Of a stretch of 64,000 bases of DNA, positions 30,211 to 54,416 are shown piece by piece; the stretch's first letter is position 1, and every line of letters starts with the position of its first letter. Below the pieces are notes generated by a model. That model made no database searches. It saw nothing but the letters and a program-made list of their open reading frames with translations, and was not told the origin of the DNA. Position numbers and translations under genes: made by a program. The stretch comes from a bacterium (GTDB lineage: Bacteria > Electryoneota > RPQS01): contig DASXUQ010000009.1 of assembly GCA_036504735.1 (NCBI GenBank), positions 103,204 to 167,203 of the forward strand, read 5' to 3'.

Positions 30211-30862
30211 AGTGTATCCTGCGATTCCTATCGGTCAAGTTTCGAACAGATAGCGTGAAGATCTGAAGGCCGTGCTTGTGCCAGATCCGTGATAGCACAC
30301 AATTGGGAAGGTGAATCACTCTGAGAATGATATCGGCCAATGAAGATGAAAGGAGATAATGTGATGTATTTCGTGACAAACACAAAAAGAGCGAACCATT
30401 CTGCCTATTGAAACAGGGGCTTCGCTCGTCTAAGGTGCGCGTCGGGAGAACCCCCGGCCATCGTGAAAGATGCTTTCAAGTTAGTAATTTATCAGTAAGG
30501 TGTCAATTTCCCCATTTCATGAATCACTAGGATTTGATTAACTTATGTTGTTGATTAATTATATCTTCCAAAGTTATTTCAACACATGTTCAGATGTTCA
30601 TGGTTTGAGGGGAGGAGTTGTTGCTGCAGGAAGCGTTGCACAAGAACCGTAGAGCGCATTGTGCTATCGAATTTTTCACTTAGAGATCTGTAGAAAGTAC
30701 TTCACCTTTTGACGAACATTCCTCAGTCGGTATGAACGACAGGCTCGGTATTATCACTCTACGAAGCCTGCGGCTCTCAAACCAAGCTAAAGCAAAGGCC
30801 CTCGGACTACTCACTTTGGGGCCCACGCTTCAGGTGTGCGGCGCATTGCTCGCAACAGATAA

Positions 30863-31972
30863 TCAGGTTTCTTCTCCAATCGGTATCTCCAGCCGTCGGG
30901 CTTGCGCCTGAAGTTGTCCCGGAAGCAGATTGGTGTATCGTTGCGTTTGGAGGATGGAAGCATGTCCGAGCCACTGTTGAACCACGCGAATGTCGATGCC
31001 GGATGCCAATGCGTTTGTCGCGTACGTGTGCCTGAATAAATGCATACCCGTCATATGATCGCCCTTCGCAATCCTCACTCCTTCCTTGCGCTCTATCCGC
31101 CTTAGGCAGCTTATCCAGGCGTTGCGATTGTTGCTTCGCGGTCCGCCCGAACGTCCCGGAAATACAAAAGGGCTTTCGCCCCTTCGTCTGTTCTTCAACC
31201 GATGAAACAACGCGATTGCCGCTGGACAGAGTGGCACCGCTCGGTCTCGTCGGTTCTTTGTAAGGTGAACCTCATTGCTGCGAATCTTGATATGCTCGCC
31301 GCCCGGTGTCAGCACAACGTCTTTCCACTGCAGGTGCCTGGCTTCCCCATCTCGCATTCCTGTGTACAACAGTGCCTTGTAGAAATCGGCAGATCCCTTA
31401 TTTGCATGCTTGAAGATGAGTGCCAACTCCATCGGGGTATAGACCTCAACGGAATGGATTGGTACACGTTGCCGGCCAATTTGGGTAGCTGGACTGTGGG
31501 TTAGATACTCCCGATCAACCGCAAATCTGAAGTAACGCTGGATTATGTTTAACTCGTCGTTCCAACTCTTCGGAGACAGCGTTTTGCTTCGCTCTTGCAG
31601 ATGAGCTTCAATATGGCTCGTTCCAATCCGCGCCAGGTTGTTGAACTTGTGACTCTGCAGGTAAAGCATGAACGGCTTGAGTTGCTGATGCATCCGCTTT
31701 GCCTGGCTTTTGGATTTCAGCAAGATCACCGCCCGCTTGAATTCTTCATATACTCGATAGTAGTCCACAAAGCTTTGCGGCAGTCCTGCCACCCCTCGTT
31801 CAAGATTGCTTTCTATCTCCGCCTTCATCTGCTCAGCGATCATCTGGCTTGTCACTTTCAGTGACCGCTGGACCTGCCTCCCATCCTGTATGTAGCTAAT
31901 CCACCAAACCTTCCCTCGTCGCTTTCCTCCAGTCTTAGAGTCAGGCAATAGTCGCTTGAAAAGTGATGCCAT
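30863..31972 (-). CDS. int: Tyrosine recombinase / phage-type integrase
   Basis: 369 aa. Catalytic box residues (R...HLFRHTYAT...LGHASILQTQRYT). Confidence 0.85.
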   Translation of the reverse strand: MASLFKRLLPDSKTGGKRRGKVWWISYIQDGRQVQRSLKVTSQMIAEQMKAEIESNLERGVAGLPQSFVDYYRVYEEFKRAVILLKSKSQAKRMHQQLKPFMLYLQSHKFNNLARIGTSHIEAHLQERSKTLSPKSWNDELNIIQRYFRFAVDREYLTHSPATQIGRQRVPIHSVEVYTPMELALIFKHANKGSADFYKALLYTGMRDGEARHLQWKDVVLTPGGEHIKIRSNEVHLTKNRRDRAVPLCPAAIALFHRLKNRRRGESPFVFPGRSGGPRSNNRNAWISCLRRIERKEGVRIAKGDHMTGMHLFRHTYATNALASGIDIRVVQQWLGHASILQTQRYTNLLPGQLQAQARRLEIPIGEET

Positions 31973-32198
31973 AGAATCTCCTGAGTTTCATGTACTCTCT
32001 TATTCCATGACACCATTATTCTGCCGCGCTACTAATCCGGAAATGGACTTCGTCCGGCTACGAAACTTTCAAGCTCAATGTTCAGCTTCCGAGAGGTTTC
32101 TGCGGCATCGCCTGGTATTATCTTCTGGCTTCTTCGCTCCTCGTATTCATTGTGCCCCCTCTGCCTTGGCTCTCTTGCAAAGGTGTCCTTGCAGGCAA

Positions 32199-32849
32199 TC
32201 AAGCGCGTTTTAGCCGCTTCTTAAGGTGGTAGACTGCGACCTCACAGTACTCTGGCAACTTCCCCATGGCGTCTCTTGACTGCCAATCCCGTAGCAAGTC
32301 TTCAAGCTCTGCTTTTGTACGAGTCGTCCCTTTAGGCCTATCCAAGTCTGCATAGAGGTTTCGGATAAGGAGCTCGCGATTGCGCTTCAGAATAGGGTGA
32401 TTCAAATTCAGAATATCATTCAATTCCTTGTCAAAATCCGCCCGGCTCGAACTGACTATTCCATCGCCCATGTACCTTATCAACTGATCAAAGTCTCGGG
32501 CGGGATCTGCAGGATTGTAGAGTAAGTCATCGTCGCCTTTGCGGTAATCGCAATGCTGTAACTTGTATGGTTGTTTTTGGCCGCCTGGACAGGCTGCCAA
32601 AAGGTTTCTATAATCGAGGCTCTCACCATCGTATTTGGTTTGGCAGTGCCAATGCTCGATCCTGCATGTCTGCTCATCAACTCGGGACATGCAGTAGCAG
32701 CACAAGTAGCCCTGCTCTGCCAAGAGGCTGGCTCTGAGTTCTTCTTTGGCCGCAGGATTGCTATTGAGATCTCTTTTGTAATTTGTTCCAGGTTTGTTTC
32801 TAATTTCTTGTAGGCTTCTGGGTTCCTTTTGTTTGCTGATATTTCTCAT
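32199..32849 (-). CDS. ptuB: Septu PtuB-like HNH endonuclease (TIGR02646-type)
   Basis: 216 aa. HNH core (CCYCMSRVDEQTCRIEHWHC). Overlaps the upstream ATPase gene by 4 nt (ATGA). Confidence 0.7.
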   Translation of the reverse strand: MRNISKQKEPRSLQEIRNKPGTNYKRDLNSNPAAKEELRASLLAEQGYLCCYCMSRVDEQTCRIEHWHCQTKYDGESLDYRNLLAACPGGQKQPYKLQHCDYRKGDDDLLYNPADPARDFDQLIRYMGDGIVSSSRADFDKELNDILNLNHPILKRNRELLIRNLYADLDRPKGTTRTKAELEDLLRDWQSRDAMGKLPEYCEVAVYHLKKRLKRA

Positions 32850-34135
32850 TTGTCAGTCCGTGGGCCCTCAAGCGAGAAGATCATGGACATGGCTTGTCGA
32901 GTCTCTGGAATCTGGTAACCAATTTCCTTCTCGATTTGTACTACCAATTCCTTCGCTTCCTCCAACTTGTCCTCATCAATTAGAGAGAACACCTGTTTCA
33001 ATTTCGCAGATACTTCAGGATCCCTGTCCTCTGTCCGCATTAACAGTGTCAGCAGCAAGTTGGAATCCAGCCCTTTCGCGTACTCTGGGAAAAAGCATTC
33101 TATCTCGTGTGATTGTGGGTTCCGGTTCAAGATTCTAACTTCAGTGTTATGCAACTCGCCAAGAATCTGCGGTGAATGTGTTGATAGCACGAATTGGCAA
33201 TTAGGAAAGGTACTGCGTAGCCGAGGGATCACGGTCCACTGCCACGCCGGATGCAAATGCAAATCGATCTCGTCGATTAGTACGATGGCCTCGCTACGAA
33301 GCGGATTCTTTATATTCGGATTGGCAGTAGCAAGCCTTCGTGCTATGTCGCCAACCATGGCCAACAAGCATTTTTCGCCATCCGATAGTTGATCAACGCG
33401 CAGGGTTTCCGCGGCTTTCTCAATCGTCATTTGATTCGGTGAACGGCGAACGCGAAGACCCTTGTAACCTGGCATCATCTTCTCGACCGCTGATCTCACA
33501 GCATCAAGTTGGCGGTCAGAATAGCTTCTGCCACCCGAGGGACCGTGACGTACTCCTTGCTGATCGCGAAGCATTTCATTTTCCAAATCCTCCCTTGTTC
33601 GGAACCACTGGAAGAAACTGCGAAAGTTGTTTTGCCCATACAAAGCCCCATCGTAGGCTGCCAATTGGTTCTTCAGTTGGCTCTTCAACGGTGCCAGTGG
33701 AACGTCGATCACGTTCCTATTTACTGAATAGTGAACAATAAGAGGGAAACTGGCGTTCGGATCGGCTTGGAATCCATCCAAAACTACACCAGCGAGATCT
33801 TTTGCTTCCTGGGTATTAGAATACACAGACGGTTTCTTTCCAGGACGAGGCTTCGCAAGAATCCAACGATAGCGTTTATCGTAATGCGAGACCTGGAGGG
33901 ATAGTACCGCTTCGCTGGAATCGTTATTTATATCGTAGCTAGATATATGCTTCCCAGAACTCCGTTGTGTTGTTATCCAACCCTGAAGCCGTGAAGCCAT
34001 CTTCGATATTGCATCCAGCACACTTGACTTGCCTACACCGTTCACGCCAACAAGTACAGTCACCCGCTCCGGGAACTCCAATACTAATTCCCTGACGCCG
34101 CGGAAGCCACGAATCTCTAATTGGTCTATCTTCAT
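32846..34135 (-). CDS. ptuA: Septu PtuA-like ABC-type ATPase (AAA_21/AAA_15)
   Basis: 429 aa. Walker A GVNGVGKSS, ABC signature LSDGEK, Walker B/H-loop IVLIDEIDLHLHP, STHSP. Confidence 0.7.
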   Translation of the reverse strand: MKIDQLEIRGFRGVRELVLEFPERVTVLVGVNGVGKSSVLDAISKMASRLQGWITTQRSSGKHISSYDINNDSSEAVLSLQVSHYDKRYRWILAKPRPGKKPSVYSNTQEAKDLAGVVLDGFQADPNASFPLIVHYSVNRNVIDVPLAPLKSQLKNQLAAYDGALYGQNNFRSFFQWFRTREDLENEMLRDQQGVRHGPSGGRSYSDRQLDAVRSAVEKMMPGYKGLRVRRSPNQMTIEKAAETLRVDQLSDGEKCLLAMVGDIARRLATANPNIKNPLRSEAIVLIDEIDLHLHPAWQWTVIPRLRSTFPNCQFVLSTHSPQILGELHNTEVRILNRNPQSHEIECFFPEYAKGLDSNLLLTLLMRTEDRDPEVSAKLKQVFSLIDEDKLEEAKELVVQIEKEIGYQIPETRQAMSMIFSLEGPRTDK

Positions 34136-34281
34136 TGAAGTATGCCTCTGGCCATATGTGAAATCTAGATTGGAGTGAAGCGAAACTCAGGTGTCGATAC
34201 AAGTTACCTATGAGCACACATCGTTGCTAGTGGTGACTTGAGTAGGTTTGCCGTCAACGGAAAGTCCGAGGAATGTGGCTT

Positions 34282-35226
34282 TCAAAGGTGACTGTTTCGC
34301 CACGGAGGAAGAATCCCGAGCCTTTCAAGGATATCTTCTGCCTCTTGGCGCTCACGGCTGACTTTGGCGTTCGCTCCTGCGGCTGCAATCCAGCCCTGCG
34401 CAACAGCGATCTCCATTGCATTGTCAATTCTGCCCTGTACGGTCGCACGGATGAGCTCTATCATCGGGGAAGCCAATATCATAGCATTAAGACGATAGTC
34501 TAGGAATGCTTCCCATGTAAGCGGACACCATCTTGATACTATTTCATTCCCGATAATGTCCGCGTATTGCCGGATTTCTATTTGAGCGTGTGAGTCCATC
34601 CGCAGGTGGAGAAAGTGAAGCAGGTTATGAAGATCAATCTTCCAGTAGGCCTCGGTGTAGGTTGACAACGGCAGATCTTTCCGCGCCTGCTCACGTGTCA
34701 CCCCAGCCTGTATCCGTGCATCATATATCTGACGACAATGCTGGTGCAGTAGCACTTCATCATTTGTAAGAGTTTGGCCGATAGTATCAGTCAATTTTCC
34801 TTTGCTCCCTTGCCGATTGTCGGATGTCTGGAGCCGCCATTGATCCGGTTTGGTCTGATGAGCTGAGTCGATGGCTATCGAATATCTGGTTGAGTACTCG
34901 TTCACATTGGCAGTCCGATGCCGTATCCACTGGCGCCATGTATCCATCGGAACGCGGATATGCAGCTTGATTTCGCACATCTCAAAAGGCGTCGTGTGCC
35001 GGTGCCGCATCAAGTACCGGATCAGGCCTCGGTCTTCATGAATTTGTTTCGTTCCTTGGCCGTAGGACACACGAGCAGCCTGAACGATGGCATGATCGGA
35101 TCCCATGTAATCGATAACACGGATGAACCCATCATCAAGGACCTTAAGCGGCACACCCAGCAGGCCGTTTAGTGATGTACAATCTGCCCGGCTAGTATTC
35201 TCGATTTCGACCATGTTGGGAGTCAT
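34282..35226 (-). CDS. thyX: Flavin-dependent thymidylate synthase ThyX
   Basis: 314 aa. ThyX signature (IRHRTANVNEYSTRYS = RHRxxxxxxxS.RY). Confidence 0.75.
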   Translation of the reverse strand: MTPNMVEIENTSRADCTSLNGLLGVPLKVLDDGFIRVIDYMGSDHAIVQAARVSYGQGTKQIHEDRGLIRYLMRHRHTTPFEMCEIKLHIRVPMDTWRQWIRHRTANVNEYSTRYSIAIDSAHQTKPDQWRLQTSDNRQGSKGKLTDTIGQTLTNDEVLLHQHCRQIYDARIQAGVTREQARKDLPLSTYTEAYWKIDLHNLLHFLHLRMDSHAQIEIRQYADIIGNEIVSRWCPLTWEAFLDYRLNAMILASPMIELIRATVQGRIDNAMEIAVAQGWIAAAGANAKVSRERQEAEDILERLGILPPWRNSHL

Positions 35227-35281
35227 GGGGCGATCTCTCCTCTGCTTGCATCAAACGATGAAAGATTGAAACAAAAGCTCT

Positions 35282-36271
35282 TCACGCAAACAAACTGCGC
35301 AAATCGAGCAGATACGCATTCGTGCCAGGCTGTGAGTACTCTGCATAGTTGTACAACCACGCCTGTGCATAGCACAGCTGTACAGATTCGTCTGCCAAGT
35401 TGACCAGAGCACTACCCAACGTAGACATCTTCGTATTCATGGGGGCTATCGCATGGTTATGCTTTGGGGTCTGCCGCACTTGCAGCATGATGGCATCGCG
35501 TGCATCCACCGGATCGCAACAGGAAAATGCGAACTCGCGAACATCCGGATGCGTAGCGTATGCTTGCTTCACCAGTTCGTGAAACCGCCGATTGGTTGTT
35601 TCACCATCGCCTGATGACGTGTGGGTGCCAGGTGTTCCGTACCCCAGCGACAATACCTCCGGTTCGTAGGCTTGAATGAGTGACATAGCACGATCATCCT
35701 CGTATCCAACAAGTACAATCAAATGAGTCTTATTTGTTGGCATCATCTTGCCAGGGTATCCAAGGACAGATCGAACCTGTCGCACCCCGCGGCTAAGCCA
35801 TCCACTGCACGGGTCTGTCTCTGGGCTATACGTGGCCCCAGTATATACTAGATCAATATGTACGTTCTCCGCAAAATGCCTCAGCAACACCTGCAACAGA
35901 ATCAGCAATCCTTCGTGAGTGAACGTGGTCATGTCCACGACTACGTGACGCTCGCAGGTAGCCTCCCATTGCACCTGTCGCGAAGTTAGCATTCTTCCAA
36001 ATGCGTCTGCGGTGATGATTGGGTCCACTGTCGAAGTCTCAACAATGCTTGGATTTGGAAGTAGGGCGCTCAGTGCTTCCGCGCTTGCACGTACATGCTC
36101 CAGAAGATTTGAATTCATTACCACGAAGGCGGACTTTACTTTGGCGAGATCGAGATTCTGAGCGACTGCAAGCGATCTGCTTTCGTAGCTAGAACAACAA
36201 ATAAACAAGTCTATCGGGTACTTGAGTGTTTCTGATAGGCGACTCAATGACAGTTTCGTCACCATTCTCAA
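35282..36271 (-). CDS. Hypothetical protein (329 aa), third gene of HD-NTPase-unknown operon
   Basis: Overlaps the upstream NTPase gene by 4 nt. Acidic patches (VGYEDDRA, VVVDMTT) could be a nuclease/Toprim-like site but are unverified. Confidence 0.4.
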   Translation of the reverse strand: MRMVTKLSLSRLSETLKYPIDLFICCSSYESRSLAVAQNLDLAKVKSAFVVMNSNLLEHVRASAEALSALLPNPSIVETSTVDPIITADAFGRMLTSRQVQWEATCERHVVVDMTTFTHEGLLILLQVLLRHFAENVHIDLVYTGATYSPETDPCSGWLSRGVRQVRSVLGYPGKMMPTNKTHLIVLVGYEDDRAMSLIQAYEPEVLSLGYGTPGTHTSSGDGETTNRRFHELVKQAYATHPDVREFAFSCCDPVDARDAIMLQVRQTPKHNHAIAPMNTKMSTLGSALVNLADESVQLCYAQAWLYNYAEYSQPGTNAYLLDLRSLFA

Positions 36272-38058
36272 TCCTCTCCTTCGAACAGCGCCAACTGCTG
36301 AGTATCTAACAGTATGTCAGGGTTCTCTTTTGCCTTTCGTAGAACAGCATTCGGATTGCTCATTGCTTCCTCCATCCGCTCGTTCGTCACAAATAGGTAA
36401 CCTGCAAAGCTTGTGGGATCCAATCTAAAATGTGGTGCCAGCTGGCGCGTTAGGACATAGAGCCTTGTTCTGCCGGTGCCCATCTTGTTTCCTATAGAGG
36501 ATACATGGAAATACCCTAGGTCTCTTCCCAATCGGAGTATTTTCTCCACATCCCGGCTTGCGTCGTTGCTAAAGGCAATGGAAAACACTCGACGCTCGGC
36601 TTTGTCCGATACCAGTATCTGGTGGAAGACTCCTCCAAGCACCCGAATCATATTGTGGAGTCGGCGTAGATCCTCTGGATCGAGTCTGAAGCGGCTCTGA
36701 TCCTGGCTTTCCTTTTCAAGCTCCCAAAATGCAAGCTTGTCGGAAAGCTTGCGGATTTCTCGGTCTTGAATGCCTGCCGGAATCGCCGATATTGGTTGCG
36801 GTAAGCCTGCCACCGTCGCTTCGCTATACATCATTGCTGCAGCGTCGAGAAAGATACGGATCACGCCTGAGGAAATATGAGTCAGTTGTTCGAAACCGGC
36901 ATATGAATAAGTTGATCCCGACTTGCTTATCCCTTCGAGTCTCTTGATGAAGTCAGGTCTAGCATAGCGCTTTGCGTCGTCAATTCCCTTATAATCTCTC
37001 TGATCGCTGGTCGCCCGTTCTTTGTAGCTTTCAGCAATTGCCGTGATCTGGCGCTCCTGGTCGAGATCGGGAGGGAAGAAATCATCCGGTTCAACATCTA
37101 TGTCCAGCAACTGAAGTCGTCGCCGGACGATTTCGCGAAGACGTTTCTTGTAGCGGCCATGGGATGTTGTATAGATCTCGGAAATATCAATTTCTGAGAA
37201 ATCGTGTGGAACGTCAATTCTTCTTCCTGAACCGGTCCTGAATGTTTTGTAGTCGTATTGAGTGGACACCTTTATACTTACGTCCGAACTCGTACGTGAG
37301 CTAACCCACGAGTTCAGCACCATTGTTTGAGAGAGGTTAAAGTGCCCTGCATCGTCAATTAGCAGGTATACCGGCTTCGCTCCAATATACGGAAGCTTCT
37401 TGAGGTCCATTAGTGTCGGAAGCAGGAAATCTCCGTACCCAAGCAAAGGTCCGTCATATGGGTGCGGCCCCGGATTAAATAGTCGTTTCACGTACTGCAG
37501 AAACTCTGCATAGATAGTGCTTAGGATGTCGATGAGTATCCTAAAAGACATAGTGTGGTCATTGCTTTCAATCACACCATCGTCGCCCTTCCACCCGCTG
37601 AGTCGTAGTCGATTGAGCACGCCCTTCACGAAGGCCGCATTAGCTTCCTTGCCTTCCTGCGTACCAGAGTCGGGTATGTTCAGCGCAGAAAGTGCTTCGA
37701 ACGCCTTTGAGGCAATGTACAGAATCATGAAATGTTCGTTCAGCACTAGGCTGCTGTGCTCATCCTTAAGACGATCCAGCTCGGACAAGCAGAGTTCGGT
37801 GTTCTTCACCTGCACCCAAATGCTCAGGAAATCGAGATTCGTGATAGTTGTGTTATTAGAAAGACATTGACAGTCCGGCTCCAAGAAACGGAAGATCATA
37901 CTCTTGCCAGATCCTCGGGGCCCATGAATGAAACAATGCCCTTGTTGTGCCACTTTCGGAAAATCACTGAATACATCCACGAACAGCCTTACAGCATCGT
38001 CAGCCGGCAACTTTTCAGGAGAACGAATGGTGAATGGATTCACGTTAGTGTGTGGCAT
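36268..38058 (-). CDS. P-loop NTPase (Walker A GPRGSGKS, Walker B LLIDDAGH), ABC/OLD- or AAA-like, defence-associated
   Basis: 596 aa. The N-terminal ATPase motifs resemble the AAA_21 pattern (G.NG.GKS, IDE..LH). Confidence 0.55.
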   Translation of the reverse strand: MPHTNVNPFTIRSPEKLPADDAVRLFVDVFSDFPKVAQQGHCFIHGPRGSGKSMIFRFLEPDCQCLSNNTTITNLDFLSIWVQVKNTELCLSELDRLKDEHSSLVLNEHFMILYIASKAFEALSALNIPDSGTQEGKEANAAFVKGVLNRLRLSGWKGDDGVIESNDHTMSFRILIDILSTIYAEFLQYVKRLFNPGPHPYDGPLLGYGDFLLPTLMDLKKLPYIGAKPVYLLIDDAGHFNLSQTMVLNSWVSSRTSSDVSIKVSTQYDYKTFRTGSGRRIDVPHDFSEIDISEIYTTSHGRYKKRLREIVRRRLQLLDIDVEPDDFFPPDLDQERQITAIAESYKERATSDQRDYKGIDDAKRYARPDFIKRLEGISKSGSTYSYAGFEQLTHISSGVIRIFLDAAAMMYSEATVAGLPQPISAIPAGIQDREIRKLSDKLAFWELEKESQDQSRFRLDPEDLRRLHNMIRVLGGVFHQILVSDKAERRVFSIAFSNDASRDVEKILRLGRDLGYFHVSSIGNKMGTGRTRLYVLTRQLAPHFRLDPTSFAGYLFVTNERMEEAMSNPNAVLRKAKENPDILLDTQQLALFEGED

Positions 38059-39160
38059 TCGGAGCCTCTTGTTGGGTCTCGGGCCAGAGTTTAGATTTCA
38101 GCGCTTCCCCGGACGGCAAATCGTGATTGGGAAGTAGTTCTTGAATCGTCTTACCGGAGTAATCCGGATAAGCGGTCGGTTCTTCAAGCGTATAGCCAAT
38201 TTGTTCCCTGGGCACAAGAAACGTATTGCTGTCATAATTATCAAACACATCAATCTTGACACGCACACGGTCTACCGTAATAAGCGGCCTTAAGAACCGC
38301 ATGCAATACACCGTTTCCTGTTGCACCTTCAGTGTTCGCTTATATATTTCTTCCAAAAGATAGACTGAGCCCTGCTCCTTCGCCAATGTTCGATCTGCAT
38401 ACTTTTTCAGCAACTCGAAGTCCAAATATATGTCCGGAGGTTCTACGATTGCACTCTGAAGGGCAAACGAGTAAGCATGATAGATTTCGCTTCCCGCAAG
38501 CAATTTCTCATTGTGCTCAAGTATAAATCTGTTGGCTCGCTCGCGCTCATCGGCAAGTTCATCAGACAGACGGAGCAAGGCCGCGAGAACTTGCACGCGC
38601 ACATGCTCGCCCAGAATGCGCGTTCGAAAATCCAAATTCCTTATCGTGTCCTTCTCCCCTGTAGGCGTCAGTCCGCCATGCGATTGTGCAATACGCACAA
38701 TGATAAGCTTCTCAATCACGTCGTCGCCGGCCCGTGACCCTAAGGTCGCAAGAACTTCGTGACATTTGAGCTCGTGCTCCTTTCTGCCATACACGATGCC
38801 GACATCATGTAAATATGTCGCCGCCAGGAGTACATAGGTTTCATATGGCGTGAGAAGAAGATGAGAATGATTCAAGAGATCAGTCATTCGTCTCAACACA
38901 CACAGGATATGACCTTCGCCGTGGTCATTCAAAAAGAGCGGTGACTTGTCCACAGTCTGGGATGTCGCCAACGCAGCCGTAACTGTTCCCGGCCAAACAT
39001 CTCGCCGAAGATAGTCCGATATGCTCTTCAGTCTCGAAACGTAATCGGCGTTGCTTGGGAATCTGCACTCGGGCGCTCGACTATAGAACCACTCGTCTAA
39101 ACGTTTTTCTTGATAGTATGATCGAGCGTTCTCGGTGGGTGGAGGATTCATAACGAACAT
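38045..39160 (-). CDS. HD-domain phosphohydrolase family protein
   Basis: 371 aa. H...HD motif (GHILCVLRR...AATYLHDVG). First gene of the three-gene overlapping operon. Confidence 0.55.
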   Translation of the reverse strand: MFVMNPPPTENARSYYQEKRLDEWFYSRAPECRFPSNADYVSRLKSISDYLRRDVWPGTVTAALATSQTVDKSPLFLNDHGEGHILCVLRRMTDLLNHSHLLLTPYETYVLLAATYLHDVGIVYGRKEHELKCHEVLATLGSRAGDDVIEKLIIVRIAQSHGGLTPTGEKDTIRNLDFRTRILGEHVRVQVLAALLRLSDELADERERANRFILEHNEKLLAGSEIYHAYSFALQSAIVEPPDIYLDFELLKKYADRTLAKEQGSVYLLEEIYKRTLKVQQETVYCMRFLRPLITVDRVRVKIDVFDNYDSNTFLVPREQIGYTLEEPTAYPDYSGKTIQELLPNHDLPSGEALKSKLWPETQQEAPNATH

Positions 39161-42570: not shown

Positions 42571-42573
42571 GAT

Positions 42574-45354: not shown

Positions 45355-45358
45355 GGGC

Positions 45359-46930: not shown

Positions 46931-47344
46931 TTAGCACGCTCGCTTAGTAAGGATACTTTCAATGCGCATAATGCATTTGTCAAAGTTGTTCTTTAACTGG
47001 TGCTCCCAGAATCGGATGACTGTCCAACCGGATCTTCGTAGCGACCGGTTCACTTCTTTGTCGCGTTGTTTGTTGTGTGCGAGTTTCGGAATCCAGTAAC
47101 GCCGATTTGCTTTTGGCACGTTTGAGTGACGCGGACACTGATGCCAGAAGCAAGAATCGAGAAATACCGCGACCTTACGGGAGACAAACACTATATCAGG
47201 CTTGCCGATTAGCCGGGAGTAATTCTTCCGATATCGAAAGCCTCGGCGGTGGAGTTCGGAGCGGAATCGAGTCTCCATCTTTGTGTCGGTGCCCCGAATA
47301 TGTTGCATTGCTCTTCGGCGCTGCGATGGTGTCAGATTGTCCAC
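46931..47344 (-). CDS. vsr: Very-short-patch repair endonuclease Vsr
   Basis: 137 aa. PDIVFVSRKVAVFLDSCFWHQCP motif. Confidence 0.8.
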   Translation of the reverse strand: MDNLTPSQRRRAMQHIRGTDTKMETRFRSELHRRGFRYRKNYSRLIGKPDIVFVSRKVAVFLDSCFWHQCPRHSNVPKANRRYWIPKLAHNKQRDKEVNRSLRRSGWTVIRFWEHQLKNNFDKCIMRIESILTKRAC

Positions 47345-47415: not shown

Positions 47416-48645
47416 CTATCTCTTTTGCGGCTGTGGCGTAATATGTGGCAAATTCGTCTCGACAGATCGATACGGCACGCCTGCAATCGTGTTCAATATG
47501 GCCCTGAAGATCACTTTGGCAGCACGGGGCGGCACAGCCATTCCGACTTGTCTTCTGACACTGTCCTTCTTGCCTTCAAATACAAACTTGTCAGTAAAAG
47601 TCTGTAATCGCGCTTTCTCGCGATTGGTGAGGGCCCTATTCTCTTTCCAGTGGTACACATGGGTTCCGCCGCCACCACTTCCGGTAACCGTATATGAGGG
47701 GAGTCTAGAGTCTAACCTTCGGTAGATCTGGCTGATCCACGCGCCCTTAACATGAAGTTTCAGGTGACGAGGCAAATTCGCGTTCCATGCATTCTCCCCT
47801 GGCTTGATGTGACTAAGCCGATCAATCACAGTCTGTGATTGAATTGTACGTTCGTGGTTCGGCGTGTCCGGTTTGATTGGGTATTTTTCAAGGGCGTGCT
47901 TGCACGAAACATGTTTGTGATGAGTCGGGGCCGGAATTTTGAATGTATGCTTTAGATCAGATCTCACACCGACAATAATGATACGATGACGCGCCTGTGG
48001 CACGCCGTAGTCTTCAAAATGGTACAGGTGGGGGACAAGTTTGTAGCCTGCAGCAGCAAACTCTTTGAACACCGCCGATAAACCGTCGCCGTTGGACAGT
48101 AGCTTGAGGCCATGCACATTTTCAGCGACAAAGAACATGGGACGAAAGTACTTGAGTGCGCGAGCAGCATGCTTATAGAGAGAGCCGTAATTGCCTTTCA
48201 GGCCGCGTTGCTCACCCAGAGTGCTGAAGTCATTGCAGGGAAAGCCAAACGCAAGGATGTCCACGCTGCGTAGCTGAGTGAACTTCAGTTTCCGAACATC
48301 GCTGTGATACACGCTATCAGGGTCTTCGGGGCAAATATTCCTGCGATAAGTCTTGCAGGCATCGAGATCAATATCGCTCGCCCATGTATGTTCTATTCTA
48401 TACGTCCTACCGTGGGCGCTATGTGCCTTGACTTGGGTCGCCCCGCAGGCCATGCCACCCGGGCCGCAGAATAGTTCGCCGTACGTCAGGACTCGATCAG
48501 TCTTGGTTGTCATCATGCTAATGAGGTGATTACTGCGTTGGTAAGTGATCAATGCTCTTCGAACTATGTAGTCCACAAAACCCGTTAATTTCGGCCCGGG
48601 GTTTCCGTTCCAGTGATCTGACGGAACGCTGTATAAGAGGGGCAT
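47416..48645 (-). CDS. dcm: DNA (cytosine-5)-methyltransferase
   Basis: 409 aa. Motif I FCGPGG, motif IV GFPCNDFS, motif VI ENV, motif VIII QARHRIIIVG. Confidence 0.85.
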   Translation of the reverse strand: MPLLYSVPSDHWNGNPGPKLTGFVDYIVRRALITYQRSNHLISMMTTKTDRVLTYGELFCGPGGMACGATQVKAHSAHGRTYRIEHTWASDIDLDACKTYRRNICPEDPDSVYHSDVRKLKFTQLRSVDILAFGFPCNDFSTLGEQRGLKGNYGSLYKHAARALKYFRPMFFVAENVHGLKLLSNGDGLSAVFKEFAAAGYKLVPHLYHFEDYGVPQARHRIIIVGVRSDLKHTFKIPAPTHHKHVSCKHALEKYPIKPDTPNHERTIQSQTVIDRLSHIKPGENAWNANLPRHLKLHVKGAWISQIYRRLDSRLPSYTVTGSGGGGTHVYHWKENRALTNREKARLQTFTDKFVFEGKKDSVRRQVGMAVPPRAAKVIFRAILNTIAGVPYRSVETNLPHITPQPQKR

Positions 48646-48945: not shown

Positions 48946-49650
48946 ATGGCCCGATCCGCAATCTATGTGGTTGATTATACACTGCTTATGACGCAAATTG
49001 GTTCGGTTGGCGCGCCCGGCTTCCGGAAATTCTGCCATATCAATGGCTTAGAGGGAGGCATTCTGGGGCATTTAGGGTGGACTTACGCCTTCGTCCCAGC
49101 GATCCCCGCTTACAGCCCAGAAAATGAGACATTCGTCCTACGTTGCGGCCAAATAAGAGAGACATTCTGGCATAAGAGGCAGAAAGCAATCTCAATCCTC
49201 TGGCCAAAGGAAAACCCCATGGAAGACGAACAGAACGAAGTCAGCGACGTGAACTATGAGATCGTGAAGGATGCCAACATCGAGCGGTTCTTCAACTACG
49301 AGTTACAGCAGGACGAAGACGGGTTCTGGTACGACGATAATGAGAACCTGATGGGTGCGGTCGTTCATTTCGAGTCGTACCCGACCCACGACACGCTGAC
49401 CGCCACTTTCGACGACCTCCTCGTGAAGGCCGTCATGCAGACCTGCGATGTTGAGGAAGATGAGGCCCACGAGATGATCGATGACTGTGACGACGAGGAT
49501 GATTTCCCGGACGAGTTCGACATCTCGAACACGTTCAGTCTCCTGTTCACGGTCGAAGGACATCGTGGGCTCTATCGAACCCTCCTCGACTCGAACGACT
49601 ATTGGACCGGCCATAGTACAGGTCGGCGCGATGATCGCTGGGATATCTAA
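48946..49650 (+). CDS. Hypothetical highly acidic protein (possible internal start at the MEDEQNEV methionine)
   Basis: 234 aa ORF with a C-terminal polyacidic region (EEDEAHEMIDDCDDEDDFPDEFD). Followed by a terminator. Confidence 0.4.
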   Translation: MARSAIYVVDYTLLMTQIGSVGAPGFRKFCHINGLEGGILGHLGWTYAFVPAIPAYSPENETFVLRCGQIRETFWHKRQKAISILWPKENPMEDEQNEVSDVNYEIVKDANIERFFNYELQQDEDGFWYDDNENLMGAVVHFESYPTHDTLTATFDDLLVKAVMQTCDVEEDEAHEMIDDCDDEDDFPDEFDISNTFSLLFTVEGHRGLYRTLLDSNDYWTGHSTGRRDDRWDI

Positions 49651-49677
49651 TCACAGATGATTTCGACGTCAATGCAA

Positions 49678-49706
49678 ATCGGGGTAGGCGGCACCCCGAT
49701 TTCTTT
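49678..49706 (+). terminator. Rho-independent terminator (ATCGGGGT-aggcggc-ACCCCGAT + TTCTTT)
   Basis: 8-bp perfect stem and a T-rich tail 28 nt after the stop. Confidence 0.6.
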
Positions 49707-49807
49707 AGCTGGTACAAGCCCACGACCATCGAAATGAAATCCTGATATGGCCCGGAGATCAGATTCCGAATCATACCCATCCGCGAAAATATTTTTCATT
49801 TACCCCC

Positions 49808-49836
49808 TTGACATTTTCTGCAAAAGTGTGTATATT
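49808..49836 (+). promoter_or_regulatory. Near-consensus sigma70 promoter TTGACA-17 nt-TATATT
   Basis: TTGACA at 49808-49813, 17-nt spacer, TATATT at 49831-49836. Followed by direct repeats ATGAAATAGAaTTCCC (49873, 49929) and palindromes. Confidence 0.5.
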
Positions 49837-50177
49837 TGTATATCGGGGAATGATTCTATCGTTACTTCCGATCCCATATATGAAATAGAATTCCCTTTCG
49901 GAATTCACCAATTACGACCGACGCAAAGATGAAATAGATTCCCTACGGGCGAATGCCCGTTTGGGAACGTATCTTCTTTTGTCGGTTTTTTGTTGCCGAC
50001 AAAATTCACCGTAATAGTTTCGCGGGAACGGTGCCCGCTGCCAAGATATAGAATGAAAATGGCCCCAGTTTCGGGGAAGAAAATACGATGTAGAAAGCTA
50101 TTTCGCTATCGAATTTTGTCCCCAAGCCAGGTCGCCGACTTGGCTTTTTGTTAATCAAAAATAGGAAAGGATCGACA

Positions 50178-50627
50178 ATGAGGAAGTACTTGAAGCGAGA
50201 AGCCCTAACCAATGCCCAGGTTATTCTCGTGAAGCAACGCGCAGCAGACATTTGGTCAGAAATTGCAGGTAAGGGTGACACGTGCTATAGCTATGGCGGC
50301 GACTACCATTTCTGGTGGGACGGGCTTCCCCATGGCCATCCGCTGATGAACACTGTTCGCGGTGGCTTAGTGAATCTGGATGACGACGAGGATGCTTGGT
50401 TATCTCTAAGCTACTTCGGGTATCTGAAAGCAGACGAACGAACATATTGGAAAGTCATCGCTAAAGAATTCCAGGATATCGCGCAATCACATTGCTACCC
50501 AATACCAAACGATCCGCGCTTGGATATAGGGCTGCTGCACTGTCGGAGCAAGCATATGAAACACATTACTGCGATGAACTACACATGGGAATGGTTACAC
50601 GACACTCACACGACAATGACAATCTGA
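50178..50627 (+). CDS. Hypothetical protein (149 aa)
   Basis: ORF with a strong RBS (AGGAAAGGAtcgacaATG). Confidence 0.45.
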   Translation: MRKYLKREALTNAQVILVKQRAADIWSEIAGKGDTCYSYGGDYHFWWDGLPHGHPLMNTVRGGLVNLDDDEDAWLSLSYFGYLKADERTYWKVIAKEFQDIAQSHCYPIPNDPRLDIGLLHCRSKHMKHITAMNYTWEWLHDTHTTMTI

Positions 50628-50639
50628 AAGGAAACTAAG

Positions 50640-50936
50640 ATGACGACTACAAAGACGAAAGACTTCGGACTGGCTGCTATGCTGGTCGCGAAGAACACAA
50701 AGATGACCGGCTATACAACCGATGAATTAGGAAATCTGTGGTTTGAGTTTGCCACAGATGAGAACGTTGCGGCACTGGAAGAAGGCTTTTACCGCAACAC
50801 CGTGGATGTTCGCATCCAAGATTTTCTGGCAGCACAAAAGATGCTGAAAGCCTTGATCTTTGAAACTAAGAGAAATATGTATGAAAATAGAATCAGAAGA
50901 TTTAACCCAACCAACACTAACACAATTGCCGTCTAA
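50640..50936 (+). CDS. Hypothetical protein (98 aa)
   Basis: ORF starting 13 nt after the previous stop, with RBS GGAAACTAAGATG. Confidence 0.4.
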   Translation: MTTTKTKDFGLAAMLVAKNTKMTGYTTDELGNLWFEFATDENVAALEEGFYRNTVDVRIQDFLAAQKMLKALIFETKRNMYENRIRRFNPTNTNTIAV

Positions 50937-53466
50937 GAACGGCACTCGTCCAGAAAGCTCAGTCCGCGAAAACGGATTCACCATTTCGCTGTCAATTTCG
51001 AAGGACAAGATTCGCACGAAGGCACAGGGAGAAACAGTCACCGAGTACATCGAGTGCGATCTGTTATCAAGCGACAAGGAAGACATTCAGGAACTCTTCA
51101 CAACAAGAAACTACTCTACCAACGTTTGGGATGGCCCAAGGCATGGCGTAAACTACGTAGGCATGACCGGCGTATCGCTGGATTTTGACAGCGGCATGAC
51201 TATTGAAGAAGCAAAAGCAGCATTTGCTGACTACAACTACGTTCTTCATACCAGTACTTCCCATCAAGTGGACAAAGATGGATTTGTCGCGGACAGATTT
51301 CGCGTGATTTTGCCTTTCATGCCTAACGGTCTGCGCTTCACGACGCAGGCTGACTGCAAGAGAGTCTATCAGAAGCTGCTTACAAAGTATCCGCAAATGG
51401 ATGCCGCGTGCACCGACGCGGGAAGACAGTTCTTTCCTTTCTGTGATGACAAGGGCGCCAAGTTCGAGCTTTACACAAATGACACCGGTTGTTACTTCGA
51501 TGTGGACATCAGCGATATGCCGGATGTCTTCGTACCAGAAGCTTTTGAAGAACGGGAATGGGACGGACATCTTCGGCCACGAAACGAGCTTGAACGCATT
51601 CTGAAGTTCTGCCCTTTCGTGAAGTGGATGGACCACCATATTGGCAATCCAAAGACAGAGATGCATGAACCACTAAGATTTGCGTTGATTTCGAATCTAT
51701 GCTGGTATGAAGGCGGGCGCGAGGAGATTCATCGCATCCTCAGCCGTGATTGTAGGCCGGGGAAGTACTATCCAGGTTTGGTGGATGAGAAGATCGACCG
51801 AATTCTCGAAGCCTACAATCCCCAGACTTACGAATTGATTGTAAGGTTGGGATGGCCGGGACCGGCGCTATGCAAACCACTATCGCCTTCCGGATGGGGG
51901 CGGGTAGGCACGAAGGCCGCACGGGAATTCGTGCAGATTGACTGGGATGACAACGTGATAGTGGACTTGAACGGTGCGTGGGTCGTTGTTGGTCTGGAAG
52001 ATCTGAAGGCAGACCTACTACCTGTGAACAAGAAGATGGCGGCGATCTGCCCCGTCTGTGGGGCCGAAGCTGTAGTGAAGCTCGACACGTTCCACTTTGC
52101 GAACATATGGTGCGAACAATGCCAGAAGGCATTCTATGAAGCCGCGCTTTCGCCTGGGATGTTCACTTACAAGAACAAACTCCTACGAGTAGAACGACGC
52201 GCCGGTCAGTTCATCAGCATGGAAGTCCTGGAGGAAGAATCTTTCCGTACAGGAGATGAATTCAAGTTCGCTAAGAAGAAGCTTCTGACGGATCCAAACA
52301 GAAGATTTCTGGATGATGGCTTTCAGATCCGAAGAATCGGAAGCGCGGACTTCGGGAAGCTGGTGTATGAATTCCGCATGCAGGAAAACGCATTACTGTT
52401 CAAATACCCAGCCATTCCGGTCAGAATCAAAGACAACGCCTTCATCAACAACTTTCTTGACCCGATGTTCGGCCAGTATGTAGACTTCATCAAGGACTGG
52501 ATGGCGGTGTTCTGCTACACAAACTATCAGACCCTTCCGGTGATCGTACTTACCAGCGAACGCAGTTGCGGAAAGGGCACTTTTGCTAACATGCTATCGG
52601 CGATCTTTCCGACATTGGTCGGACAGTGGGACGGTGTGAAAGAGTCATTCAACGATCAGTACAAGAACAAGCTGCTGTTCGTGGACGAAAACCCGAACGC
52701 CGAGAAACCTATGCAGTACACGGAAATCAAGAAGATCACGGGCAACCGCCTGCTGCGTATAAACGAGAAGTATACACCGGCCTATTATGCCCCCAATAAC
52801 ATCAATATTATTATTGCAACTAATGATCCACGGCCCATGTTCTTGAAGGCCAGGGAAGAACCGAAATCTGAAAACACTAACAACTTCTTTATTCACCGCG
52901 TGCCGGATGTTAATCCGGACAGGATTGACAAGACCCTGGGCAACAAATTGGAGGACCGAATCGGCTACTATGTCCGAACCGAACTGAAGGAGCGTTACCA
53001 GAGGCTCCTGGCGGAAGGCAATACGAATAACCGTTACACTCTGGCAGCACCAATCACTCCGCTTGCACGTGATCTGTTCGCTTCAAGCAAATCAACGGTT
53101 GAAATCGAAGCAGATGAACTTGCGCGCTATCTTGTGTGCGGCGTGGAAATGCCAGATCCCTATGGAGACGGTTATTCTTCGAAGATCAAGTTCACGGCAA
53201 CCGAGTACAACGGCGCCAAGTACGTGCAGCTTGCAGAGATCAGACTGCTGATCTCCCGGCTACGCTTCAAGGGAAGCTCGAATCCGAAGGCATACATCAG
53301 TGTTCTGCAGGATTTGGGCGTGCTATCATTTGACGCATCGGCACGCAGCAACGTACGACATCTTGGCTACAAGATTCTGCGTGATCAAAAGTACTATGAT
53401 CCACAGCAGCCTTCAATCACCGGCACGCCAGGCGTCAGCAGCAATGGAAATGTGGTTTTCGGGTGA
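50860..53466 (+). CDS. Bifunctional primase-polymerase / P4-type (SF3, D5-like) replicative helicase; N-terminal start uncertain
   Basis: 868 aa. C-terminal P4-family NTPase motifs (Walker A SERSCGKGTF, Walker B LLFVDEN). N-terminal prim-pol-like region. Confidence 0.7.
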   Translation: MKLREICMKIESEDLTQPTLTQLPSKNGTRPESSVRENGFTISLSISKDKIRTKAQGETVTEYIECDLLSSDKEDIQELFTTRNYSTNVWDGPRHGVNYVGMTGVSLDFDSGMTIEEAKAAFADYNYVLHTSTSHQVDKDGFVADRFRVILPFMPNGLRFTTQADCKRVYQKLLTKYPQMDAACTDAGRQFFPFCDDKGAKFELYTNDTGCYFDVDISDMPDVFVPEAFEEREWDGHLRPRNELERILKFCPFVKWMDHHIGNPKTEMHEPLRFALISNLCWYEGGREEIHRILSRDCRPGKYYPGLVDEKIDRILEAYNPQTYELIVRLGWPGPALCKPLSPSGWGRVGTKAAREFVQIDWDDNVIVDLNGAWVVVGLEDLKADLLPVNKKMAAICPVCGAEAVVKLDTFHFANIWCEQCQKAFYEAALSPGMFTYKNKLLRVERRAGQFISMEVLEEESFRTGDEFKFAKKKLLTDPNRRFLDDGFQIRRIGSADFGKLVYEFRMQENALLFKYPAIPVRIKDNAFINNFLDPMFGQYVDFIKDWMAVFCYTNYQTLPVIVLTSERSCGKGTFANMLSAIFPTLVGQWDGVKESFNDQYKNKLLFVDENPNAEKPMQYTEIKKITGNRLLRINEKYTPAYYAPNNINIIIATNDPRPMFLKAREEPKSENTNNFFIHRVPDVNPDRIDKTLGNKLEDRIGYYVRTELKERYQRLLAEGNTNNRYTLAAPITPLARDLFASSKSTVEIEADELARYLVCGVEMPDPYGDGYSSKIKFTATEYNGAKYVQLAEIRLLISRLRFKGSSNPKAYISVLQDLGVLSFDASARSNVRHLGYKILRDQKYYDPQQPSITGTPGVSSNGNVVFG

Positions 53467-53920
53467 GAGAAGTGATAGAAGTAGTAATAGTAGTAGTGGA
53501 AACATCACCCCTTCGGGGTGAGCAATAACAACAACTTAGAAAACCAAAGTGATGAAAGTGATGGAAGTGATACTGATTTTCGAAAGAGTTTTCCAGGATT
53601 TTGCTTAGCACGACCAGCGGGTTACCATAGAAAGACTTTTCGAAATCCTTCTCACTTTCATCACTACTATCACCAGTACTTCAAAGACAATATTCTTAAG
53701 GGGCCGAAAGGCCCTTTATCTTTGAGACCCGAAAATCACTTCTTGCTTCGGTGATAACTGTGGACAAGAAGAAAAAGTAGTATTAGTGGTGTTATTGGCC
53801 CTTCGGGCCGAATTCATCCGGAAAAACGAACCGATCCTGAATTTCGATTCCCGCTTTTCGATTCCCGAAAACGGGCCGTCGCTACTTCTACTACTATTAC
53901 TACTACTTCTTTTCTTGATA
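53467..53920. other. Highly structured iteron-rich non-coding region immediately downstream of the primase-helicase gene (candidate origin of replication and/or structured ncRNA)
   Basis: About 20-nt inverted repeat arms at 53488-53508 and 53885-53906. A nested inverted repeat at about 53550-53590 and 53636-53680. Tandem GTGAT(G/A)GAA and AGTAGTA units. Three tetraloop hairpins (CCCC-ttcg-GGGG, GGGCC-gaaa-GGCCC, GGCCC-ttcg-GGGCC). Duplicated TTTCGATTCCCG. Confidence 0.5.
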
Positions 53921-54416
53921 GGAATTCTGGACTAAGACGCTTTCAAGTCCAGATCGAAGCTGGGGGGGGCAGCACGATGCGTACGGGTGAGCTGATTGCT
54001 CCGCATAGTATCAAATGTTATGCGTTGACAGACCCCGCAACAACGATTCAACATTCGATCTACGGAGATCGCTTCACTTCCCGATGCTCTTTGAGTCGAG
54101 AATCTGAGCGGAGGTTCGACATACCCCCCACCACTCAACAAAGCATGCTTACCACAAAGTACTGTAGTGGAGATAATTGTGTTCGCATCTCCTAACAACG
54201 GGCGGCTCGCGATTCTGCGACGCCCACCAAGAGGAAACGGCAATTGACCTGGGAAAAGCCCCCGTCCAAAATTTTTTTGGGATTTTTTGAAAGTTGACCA
54301 TTAGGGCTCGCATTCACTCCCTGATCGGGATCTGCTGGGCTGTTGCATATGGTAAAGAAGAAGCCGATGATTGTTCACCGGCTTCATTCTACTATGCGTG
54401 TCGCGAGTTGATGCTG

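Follow-up and report, generated by a model that had tools for sequence, protein, structure and literature searches.

The genes between a tyrosine integrase gene (int1) and a primase-helicase gene, located at 30.2–54.4 kb of the 64,000-nt stretch of contig DASXUQ010000009.1 (hereafter the window), probably represent the middle portion of a larger integrative unit of ~50.7 kb at the 3' end of ssrA, the transfer-messenger RNA (tmRNA) gene; this unit appears in turn to be the ssrA-proximal member of a tandem array of units bounded by attachment (att) sites. A preliminary description had read the block as a self-contained element of roughly 24 kb with int1 at its left end and the primase-helicase at its right. 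The block as such is neither a compositional nor a structural unit; the GC content amounts to 45–54% throughout the region from 12.6 kb to window-equivalent 66.9 kb, with 56–60% in both flanks (measured for the giant secreted-protein genes at 1737–12596 and for the gene past ssrA). The simplest reading, and the one favored here, is an ssrA-anchored tandem array whose proximal unit (16,347–67,056) would enclose the entire integrase-to-primase block. According to this reading, the tmRNA gene, located 3 kb beyond the window, serves as the att site, and the element is about twice as large as proposed and contains two integrase modules. It would provide a starting point for work on mobile defence islands in KSB1/Calditrichota, candidate phyla whose genetics has scarcely been characterised.

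Window-equivalent coordinates above 64,000 denote the extension beyond the window end through a 365,086-bp contig (L014), which was found via the AAA+ protein encoded at 60700–62496 and is 100% identical to the window over the full overlap of 13,301 nt; the window primase likewise has a 100% identical counterpart on a 434,659-bp contig of a metagenome-assembled genome. From left to right, the unit would comprise left-hand cargo (PDC-M05A, a PD-Lambda-2-like gene, a GAP1 GTPase system), a second integrase module (HTH_17a, a three-gene insert, int1), a variable defence slot at ~32.0–49.2 kb (Septu, thyX with CARF6/ORC/HD, Mza with Dcm/Vsr), a replication module (small genes, primase-helicase, an iteron-type origin of replication (ori)), a secreted beta-helix protein, a ubiquitin-like/E1/JAB module, an AAA+ regulator-like module and, at the right end outside the window, HTH_17b and a second integrase (int2). 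The latter, with HTH_17b as directionality factor, would recombine the core sites of both ends to yield an excised circle, which the primase-helicase would replicate by firing the iteron ori; the cargo would shield the host against phages, and the slot upstream of the replication module would swap defence systems among relatives.

Attachment and arm sites of the proposed ssrA-anchored unit

In the extension, int2 (65764–66891, 1.8 kb past the window end, read from L014) is adjoined by the excisionase-like gene HTH_17b (65401–65661) and abuts the 3' end of ssrA (67033–67392, minus strand), which was identified by ARAGORN (tag ANNSYALAA) and by Rfam (171.6 bits; the full model is covered, positions 1–374). 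Adjacency to a tRNA-type att site is a property of int2, not of int1; within the window no tRNA gene was found, as had been stated before. The two integrases are paralogues (58% identity), and int1, int2, HTH_17b and the primase are all of full length. Loci of the int2 type with ssrA immediately after the integrase number eight (L011, L013, L014, L105, L111, L117, L120, L121), the gene order being body, HTH_17, integrase, ssrA, and in every int2-type locus a pair of arm-type repeats, spaced by 11 nt, precedes the terminator hairpin and ssrA 3' end by ~70 nt. The type of the arm repeat (TAGGACA, TGGCACA, TAGCACA, CAGGACA or CAAGACA) follows the integrase; the att and arm-site code is readable across the family. 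A fragment of 20–21 nt of the ssrA 3' end that is unaccompanied by a tmRNA gene was present in L017, L096/L097, L100 and L112; in the latter three loci (L096/L097, L100, L112) a second arm-repeat pair of different type is located ~120 nt across the core, and these sites are junctions between tandem elements.

The right end of the unit would be formed by the core GGAATCGAAC within ssrA (67047–67056) and the cognate arms at 66940–66963 that adjoin HTH_17b and int2, the left end by the same core at 16347–16356 and TAGGACA-type arm repeats at 16472–16495. The int2-type repeat GGTGTTTAGGACAAAATTAGGACA at 66940 (72 nt from the ssrA 3' end) has one other copy, which starts at 16472 and is identical at 22 of 24 positions; this arm (GGTGTTTAGGACAGAATTAGGCCA) is positioned 116 nt to the right of the left core, a segment common to the T-arm of ssrA, at a spacing as in the other tandem junctions. 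The proposed attL of the int2 unit spans 16149–16495 (plus strand) and includes, besides the core sequence (16341–16356) and the arm, the second copy (16149–16307) of a 159-nt direct repeat, D2. The distal core repeat expected for an ssrA island is present at 16347 with cognate arms at the expected spacing; its length of only 10 nt makes it a weaker repeat than that of related loci. The intergenic DNA between 16.5 and 66.9 kb contains no arm-type repeat, ssrA fragment or core.

A further att-like site (junction A, 12971–13345, plus strand) consists of the first D2 copy (12971–13129), the core-like sequence TACTCTGTAATCCAAC (13163–13178) and tandem arms of TGGCACA type (13297–13345), the arm being 119 nt distant from the core, like in the junctions of L096, L100 and L112. 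D2 precedes both left sites (77% identity between the copies). Between the two sites (junctions A and B) lies an AbiEii/AbiEi cassette (14178–16095, minus strand; assigned by Pfam) with no integrase of its own that is flanked by direct repeats of ~210 nt (D2 plus core-like sequence; 12971–16356) and looks like an att-flanked, cis-mobilisable cassette; the gene order in L017 is integrase, ssrA fragment, AbiEi-AbiEii.

Several other candidate sites were rejected. BLAST comparison of the ssrA 3' end with the window gave matches of 10–12 nt only, the 11-nt match at 48793 (E = 2.8) has flanks with no similarity, and two inverted copies of TTCGATTCCCG at 53843–53867 have the wrong orientation for an att site. 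The sequence TGGCAC...GGCACA had also been considered as a sigma-54 promoter; it points into antisense ssrA as well and is read instead as an integrase arm site. A separate observation concerns the Logan contig SRR11794808_37507 (42,564 nt), which maps to window positions 16466–59029, its left end located 6 nt ahead of the arm repeat at 16472; either heterogeneity of the population at the left end of the unit or coincidence may account for this.

Replication module and variable defence slot

The replication module (49166–53466, plus strand) starts with the 14-mer TCTGGCATAAGAGG (49166–49179), followed by small genes at 49219–49650, 50148–50627 and 50640–50936 and by the primase-helicase (DUF5906, 861 aa; better start at 50881, end at 53466). 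The C-terminal helicase domain of the latter resembles the solved "Primase" entries 6k9c/6k9e; its N-terminus matches phage primase families of the PHROGs database, with only remote similarity to phage primases. The ori-like region directly behind it (53463–53911) is composed of 9-nt iterons (GTGATnGAA) in direct and inverted clusters and of GC-rich hairpins. The same iteron architecture after the primase stop codon was found in L002, L005 and L007, and the non-coding stretch after the primase measured 0.5–1.9 kb with 37–49% GC in all six primase loci in which it was determined. On the basis of these comparisons, primase-helicase and ori are suggested to form a conserved replication module, in agreement with the primase-polymerase/helicase and putative ori recognised earlier at this end of the block. 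The small genes on the strand opposite to the cargo, which had been assigned a consensus promoter region, were confirmed, as was a near-consensus sigma-70-like site (49808–49836, 11 of 12 positions); the number of such sites in this region is at chance level.

The 14-mer TCTGGCATAAGAGG occurs in exact form upstream of the primase operon (49166), the beta-helix gene (56741) and the gene cluster of the ubiquitin-like protein (60529), with a chance expectation of 0.43 even if two mismatches are allowed. Upstream of the primase module it is exact in L003 and has one mismatch in L002; in other relatives, backbone genes are preceded by variants with 1–2 mismatches. The motif probably acts as a common promoter or operator. 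A sigma-54 promoter was rejected for TCTGGCATAAGAGG and for the arm-site sequence mentioned above, the -12 GC being missing or misplaced; the spacing of the 14-mer is not that of sigma-54 sites. More generally, the 14-mer is located ~25–200 nt upstream of backbone operons including HTH_17 (window positions 26172, 49166, 56741 and 60529; L002, L003, L010, L011 and L016).

Homologues of the primase (n = 36; 21–64% identity) belong, as far as they are named, to candidate division KSB1 or Calditrichaeota. The module is common to seven independent primase loci (L002, L003/L004, L005/L006, L007, L008, L009 and the window) and consists of 1–4 small plus-strand genes, a gene of 91–98 aa that overlaps the primase start, and the primase. 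The divergent cargo upstream of it comprises BREX in L002, an SNF2 helicase and an MmeI-like enzyme in L003, a type I restriction-modification system with an RtcR-like gene and an AEP-TOTE protein in L007, a type I restriction-modification system and Fic in L008, and an SNF2 helicase, an Eco57I-type methylase and a DEAD/MZB helicase in L009; L005 has no cargo at this position. Because the cargo differs at the same position in relatives, a variable defence slot next to the replication module is considered real, and the DNA between integrase and primase of the window is best assigned to such a slot by this comparison. New systems could be mined by position with the help of the conserved replication module and the defence slot immediately upstream of it.

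In the window, the slot includes on the minus strand a Septu system of the adjacent genes PtuB (HNH; 32199–32849; PADLOC 2.9e-71) and PtuA (ATPase; 32846–34135; 8.7e-140) with a 4-nt overlap, followed by thyX (34282–35226) and an operon of a CARF6-like, an ORC-CDC6-like and an HD-CE gene (35282–39160; PADLOC 4.8e-79, 2e-95 and 1.7e-22, respectively). Since thyX is located 55 nt downstream of the CARF6-like gene on the same strand, the four genes may constitute one operon, a predicted conflict operon with the thymidylate synthase as its fourth member. Next to it, the Mza operon (MzaE/D/C/B, 39483–46891, minus strand) was identified by PADLOC with MzaB (GHKL, 1.2e-135), MzaC (Z1, 1.6e-235), MzaD (DUF4420, 2.6e-24) and MzaE (AIPR, 1.2e-110); upstream of it are located Vsr (46931–47344, minus strand) and a Dcm-type methyltransferase (47416–48645, minus strand), which matched type II methyltransferase models and no specific MzaA model.

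The gene assignments of the preliminary description for this slot were thereby largely reproduced: Septu, ThyX and the "HD-NTPase-unknown" operon are present, the "unknown" third gene being CARF6-like, and the Dcm-Vsr-GHKL-Z1-PD(D/E)XK-AIPR cassette corresponds to MzaB/C/D/E with Vsr and Dcm. The idea of an integrative element laden with defence genes holds insofar as an element and a variable defence slot are recognised; ThyX by itself, however, does not count as a defence protein, and for the CARF6/ORC/HD operon a role in conflict is no more than a prediction. Uncharacterised cargo candidates in or near the slot are the thyX-CARF6-ORC-HD operon, the cassette at 26.8–30.2 kb and the GAP1 GTPase operon (the latter two are described below).

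Conserved modules right of the primase

The gene next to the replication module (54417–56741 including the 14-mer at 56728–56741; minus strand) encodes a secreted beta-helix protein and has the 14-mer 32 nt upstream of its start codon. The region from 54417 onwards had been regarded as a return to flanking genes of secreted structural proteins; this applies to one gene only, which carries the 14-mer of the primase operon and is followed by conserved modules of the element. Large secreted proteins of the type IX secretion system (T9SS) type are likewise located right of the primase in L003, L005 and L008, and left of the ubiquitin-like module in L011. Two non-coding segments behind the gene are similar to DNA right of the primase in relatives: 56750–56882 is 77% identical to L008 and 57097–57245 is 73.5% identical to L003, with runs of 25–30 identical bases and a hairpin in the first segment. 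Rfam models at gathering thresholds gave no match for either segment; they may be small RNAs or regulatory sites.

The subsequent T module (57348–60529, minus strand, including the 14-mer at 60516–60529) encodes a 98-aa protein, a ThiF-type E1 (218 aa), a JAB/JAMM peptidase (motif HSHx7SxxD), a 379-aa protein and a ThiS-like ubiquitin-like protein (Ubl) that ends in GGI. The 379-aa protein has a Cys-rich C-terminus and belongs to a family of 85 members that co-occurs with primase and integrase contigs; a fold search gave no significant match, with only weak similarity to folds of the E2 or ubiquitin E2 variant (UEV) type (E about 0.5). The S module (60700–63939, plus strand) consists of an AAA+ protein of the sigma-54-interaction type (60700–62496) and of small genes at 62821–63327 and 63481–63939; past the window, L014 continues with three more small genes (including one listed with 274 aa), HTH_17b, int2, the arm repeats and ssrA. 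No CARF or HTH_8 domain was detected in the AAA+ protein, whose gene contains two Asp/Glu-rich stretches (60792–60948 and 61365–61434); RtcR/PspF-like PADLOC models matched it across the AAA+ core only.

The T module is syntenic in L005, L007, L011, L101, L105 and L112. In L005/L006 and L007, homologues (51–58% identity) of the ThiF, 241-aa and 379-aa genes of the window (57650–60139) follow a few kb after the primase, whereas T and S modules together with HTH_17 and integrase (in the order Ubl/E1 cluster, AAA+, small genes, HTH_17, integrase) are found in L011, L101 and L105; L112 has the Ubl/E1 cluster, HTH_17 and integrase with no match to the AAA+ gene or S module. By contigs matched on equal size, the family of the 379-aa protein is tied to five further primase-bearing and three integrase-bearing contigs. 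From the right-hand synteny, the shared 14-mer and the conserved non-coding DNA, it follows that the element most plausibly continues past 54.4 kb and ends at ssrA. In consequence, the extent of ~24 kb and the pairing of int1 with the primase were not upheld: the primase module is syntenic with right-hand modules that end in int2 at ssrA, 1.8–3 kb beyond the window.

int1 and the left-hand cargo

The integrase gene int1 (30863–31972, minus strand) is intact, as noted before; it matches Phage_integrase (4.7e-23) and its product has the family-invariant residues of the recombinase core. Its presumable partner gene, HTH_17a (AlpA/excisionase-like, 26372–26632, plus strand; PF12728, PHROG excisionase 1.2e-09), is located on its left, outside the proposed block. 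HTH_17a is 76% identical to the HTH_17 gene of L010, the integrase of which is 82% identical to int1; the L010 genes are convergent with 40 nt between the stop codons. In the window, int1 and HTH_17a are also convergent and are separated by a three-gene cassette (26822–30210) and a 650-nt AT-rich spacer. Comparison of 12 loci revealed that the family integrase adjoins an HTH_17 excisionase-like gene, with the att site on the integrase side, away from HTH_17, in all but one of them (11/12). In L016 and L102, with convergent integrase and HTH_17 genes, a tRNA gene (Asp or Gly) immediately precedes the 5' end of the integrase gene, with HTH_17 and the body on the 3' side of the latter. Given the order att-integrase-HTH_17-body, the body of the int1 element would be to the left and its att site is expected at 31973–32198. 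The homology to L010 upstream of int1 breaks off at 32008, 36 nt ahead of the ATG, in keeping with a junction at this place; in 31973–32198, no att feature (ssrA fragment, hairpin, core or arm-type repeat) is recognisable. Most likely, int1 belongs with the left-hand cargo, as its gene context suggests; this is the very alternative that the preliminary description had named as refuting its own assignment of int1 to the left end of the block. The preferred view of int1 is that of an integrase from a once independent element that would have been accreted in tandem, with a junction that is no longer recognisable.

The cargo left of HTH_17a includes a PDC-M05A nucleotidyltransferase (16666–17331), an HTH-M78 protein resembling PD-Lambda-2_B (17875–19005) and a five-gene operon (19332–25760) of GAP1-N1, DO-GTPase1, DO-GTPase2, GASH and metallophosphatase-GAAD, which is a predicted conflict system with a PADLOC match for the last gene only. 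The three-gene cassette between HTH_17a and int1 (26822–30210, minus strand) encodes an AMP-binding-like protein of 447 aa, a 197-aa protein and an SSF-like membrane protein of 483 aa; it has no PADLOC match, is absent from L010 and is a candidate for uncharacterised cargo.

Alternative readings of the array

The intact state of int1 also lends itself to another interpretation: two still-separable tandem elements, E1 (~16.35–32.0 kb, whose ssrA-proximal end contains int1 and HTH_17a) and E2 (~32.0–67.05 kb, Septu to int2), which would meet at a junction immediately 5' of int1 and would each be excised there by an integrase of their own. The gene order in 11 of the 12 comparator loci, which places an att site at 31973–32198, and the break of homology to L010 36 nt upstream of int1 are in line with it, and tandem junctions of mixed arm type do exist in L096, L100 and L112. 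However, neither 31973–32198 nor the intergenic DNA of 16.5–66.9 kb has an ssrA fragment, hairpin, core or arm repeat, and the arm repeat at 16472 is of int2 type, the type of the opposite end; two separable elements are therefore judged unlikely. The self-contained element of ~24 kb from int1 to primase/ori, of the P4-like or phage-inducible chromosomal island (PICI)-like satellite or integrative and conjugative element (ICE)-like type with att sites in 30211–30862 and 53921–54416, does agree in gene content with a layout of integrase, cargo and replication, and defence cargo varies upstream of the primase of relatives. Yet the proposed ends lack a direct repeat above chance: the longest word common to 30211–30862 and 53467–54416 has 10 nt (shuffled sequences: mean 9.2, maximum 13) instead of the predicted 15 nt or more, no direct repeats above chance across 12–64 kb link the two ends proposed near 30.2 and 54.4 kb, and remnants of tRNA-Asp, tRNA-Val or tRNA-Glu, L010 flanks and generic arm repeats were not found near int1, at 48.6–49.2 kb or at 53.4–54.4 kb. 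Furthermore, the HTH_17 partner of int1 lies on the far side of int1, not within the block, DNA to the right of 54.4 kb shows conservation in relatives and carries the upstream motif of the element, a second integrase is present at ssrA, and neither an integrase nor an att or arm motif was found closer than 10 kb to the primase in the relatives examined (L002–L009). Together with the results on packaging and conjugation genes (none found; see below), these observations render an element of this extent very improbable.

A decayed, immobile defence island, in which integrases, primase and att-like sites would be vertically inherited relics of the KSB1/Calditrichota lineage and defence genes would turn over by ordinary hotspot recombination, accounts for both long assemblies (434,659 and 365,086 bp) running straight through the island, for the degenerate distal core, for the long contigs of L005 and L007 that contain primase and T modules and no family integrase, and for the transfer genes not found. 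It is difficult to reconcile with int1, int2, HTH_17b and primase being of full length, with the match of the arm repeats at the two ends (22 of 24 positions), with the conserved iteron ori and with the frequency of tandem junctions with intact ssrA fragments in the family, which implies recent integration; immobility by decay is accordingly rated as quite improbable, if less so than the 24-kb element. The ssrA-anchored array with a proximal unit of 16,347–67,056, which remains the favored reading, is itself burdened by several observations: no excision product or empty site was observed; the left core has just 10 nt in common with ssrA and is preceded by the D2 repeat, not by a displaced ssrA 3' end as in L096, L100 and L112; and int1 is intact and has no recognisable att site on either side. 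In addition, the primase loci of the relatives were followed leftward for at most 10 kb and their own left end was not reached, the position of the cargo inside those elements being inferred; and primase-bearing contigs of 220 kb, 711 kb and 1.9 Mb are absent among the contigs that hold a family integrase, which indicates that the modules are shuffled and not always linked to this integrase. A scan of the genome collection with the integrase alignment was swamped by unrelated tyrosine recombinases, the only family members retrieved being L016 and L017.

Relation to known classes of mobile elements

The designations "satellite" and "ICE" are not supported. By Pfam and PHROGs, no capsid, terminase, sid/psu-like, relaxase or type IV secretion system (T4SS) genes were detected, and scans of IMG/VR with the primase, the 379-aa protein and the primase alignment revealed no relatives, in disagreement with the P4/PICI satellite or ICE architecture that had been assumed. 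Specifically, none of the packaging or capsid-redirection genes that define a PICI (terS, ppi, cpm, capsid) was found, the sole PHROG match to a "terminase small subunit" being the HTH domain of HTH_17a (1.6e-05). Relaxase, coupling protein and T4SS, the hallmarks of ICEs and integrative and mobilizable elements, were absent from the scanned open reading frames (ORFs), i.e. the long ORFs of 13–64 kb and the small backbone genes in the Pfam scans for conjugation genes, a few ORFs and those beyond the window not being scanned directly; packaging or conjugation genes that would supply a transfer route are accordingly lacking from this set. A feature in common with P4-type elements is the presence of AlpA-type HTH regulators/excisionases (HTH_17a and HTH_17b); the DUF5906 helicase domain, the phage-primase PHROG matches and the iteron region may correspond to an alpha-type primase-helicase with its adjacent ori. 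By analogy, the element appears closest to tycheposon- or P4-like defence islands, the likeness being one of architecture; integrase-borne defence islands at tRNA/tmRNA genes are already well known, and the element is ordinary in kind.

Tycheposons combine a tyrosine recombinase, with or without excisionase, with a small primase/helicase replication module and variable cargo; their targets are tRNA genes including tmRNA, and they form islands of several elements with partial tRNA remnants (bioRxiv 10.1101/2020.12.28.424599, Hackl et al.). The ssrA island likewise combines tyrosine recombinase, primase/helicase replicon, cargo and a tRNA/tmRNA target. The tycheposons, however, reside in marine picocyanobacteria and carry cargo for nutrient acquisition, whereas the host of the ssrA island belongs to KSB1/Calditrichota and its cargo is anti-phage defence; the unit is much larger (~51 kb), and its backbone contains an extra ubiquitin-like/E1/JAB module and an AAA+ gene.

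P4-like satellites possess an integrase, an AlpA-like HTH protein, a primase-helicase with adjacent iteron ori and a hotspot in which defence systems are swapped; these satellites and their defence hotspots were reportedly the subject of work by Rousset et al. in 2022. Integrase, AlpA-like HTH protein, primase-helicase with a putative iteron ori and swapped defence are present in the ssrA island as well. P4-like satellites and defence hotspots are also treated in PMC13586616. Unlike them, the ssrA island has no psu, sid, delta or epsilon homologues and no known helper phage: none of its small backbone genes gave a Pfam or PHROG match, to these helper-exploitation genes or otherwise.

Cis-mobilizable elements (CIMEs) of the ICESt1/ICESt3 family are integrase-less, att-flanked cassettes in accreting tandem arrays. 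They share with the ssrA array the tandem arrangement at one att site and hybrid junctions between neighbouring units, and the AbiE cassette (13.2–16.35 kb), possibly also the segment of 1.6–13.2 kb, would correspond to their recombinase-less att-bearing units. In contrast to the ICESt1/ICESt3 family, no conjugation module was found in the island, the target is ssrA, and at least five integrase specificities occur within one family as judged by the type of arm repeat.

The T module resembles the Bil operons, which are bacterial ubiquitin-like conjugation operons like Bub (PMC11601596), in its Ubl ending in GG plus one residue, its JAB/JAMM peptidase with the full HxHx7SxxD motif and its ThiF-type E1. 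The E1 of the T module (218 aa) has a single adenylation domain, whereas the E1 of Bil (BilD) is a two-domain protein (IAD-AAD-CYS: inactive and active adenylation domain, cysteine domain); the T module has no clear E2, its 379-aa partner showing only the weak UEV/E2-like fold matches, and it behaves as a conserved part of the backbone, unlike swappable cargo. It is conceivable, albeit doubtful, that these loci define an undescribed family of self-replicating integrative elements of KSB1/Calditrichota that target tmRNA/tRNA genes and form a class distinct from P4, PICI, ICE and tycheposons. The backbone of such a family would consist of the primase-helicase replicon, a complete ubiquitin-like conjugation module (Ubl, JAB, E1, novel 379-aa partner), an AAA+ protein resembling bacterial enhancer-binding proteins and T9SS-secreted beta-helix proteins, with at least five integrase/arm-site specificities and with integrase-less att-flanked cassettes (AbiE, possibly the giant secreted proteins) in the same array. 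If this were true, the ubiquitin-like module would serve the life cycle of the element itself or act as a fixed anti-phage arm.

Array accretion in a relative and the left border of the window

A compact case of array accretion is provided by L096, where two divergent family integrases are located less than 3 kb apart (6585–9820) with an ssrA 3' fragment and arm repeats between them; HTH_17 genes are found on both sides of one integrase. At the left border of the window, an insertion sequence of the IS3 family (1–1560; orfA at 1213–1497 and orfB/rve at 346–1146, both on the minus strand) adjoins a third arm of TGGCACA type (1583–1630), which is followed by GTCACA repeats. The arm at 1583 may be a further array junction disrupted by the IS3 element; in that case, the giant secreted-protein genes (1737–12596) would be positioned inside the array.

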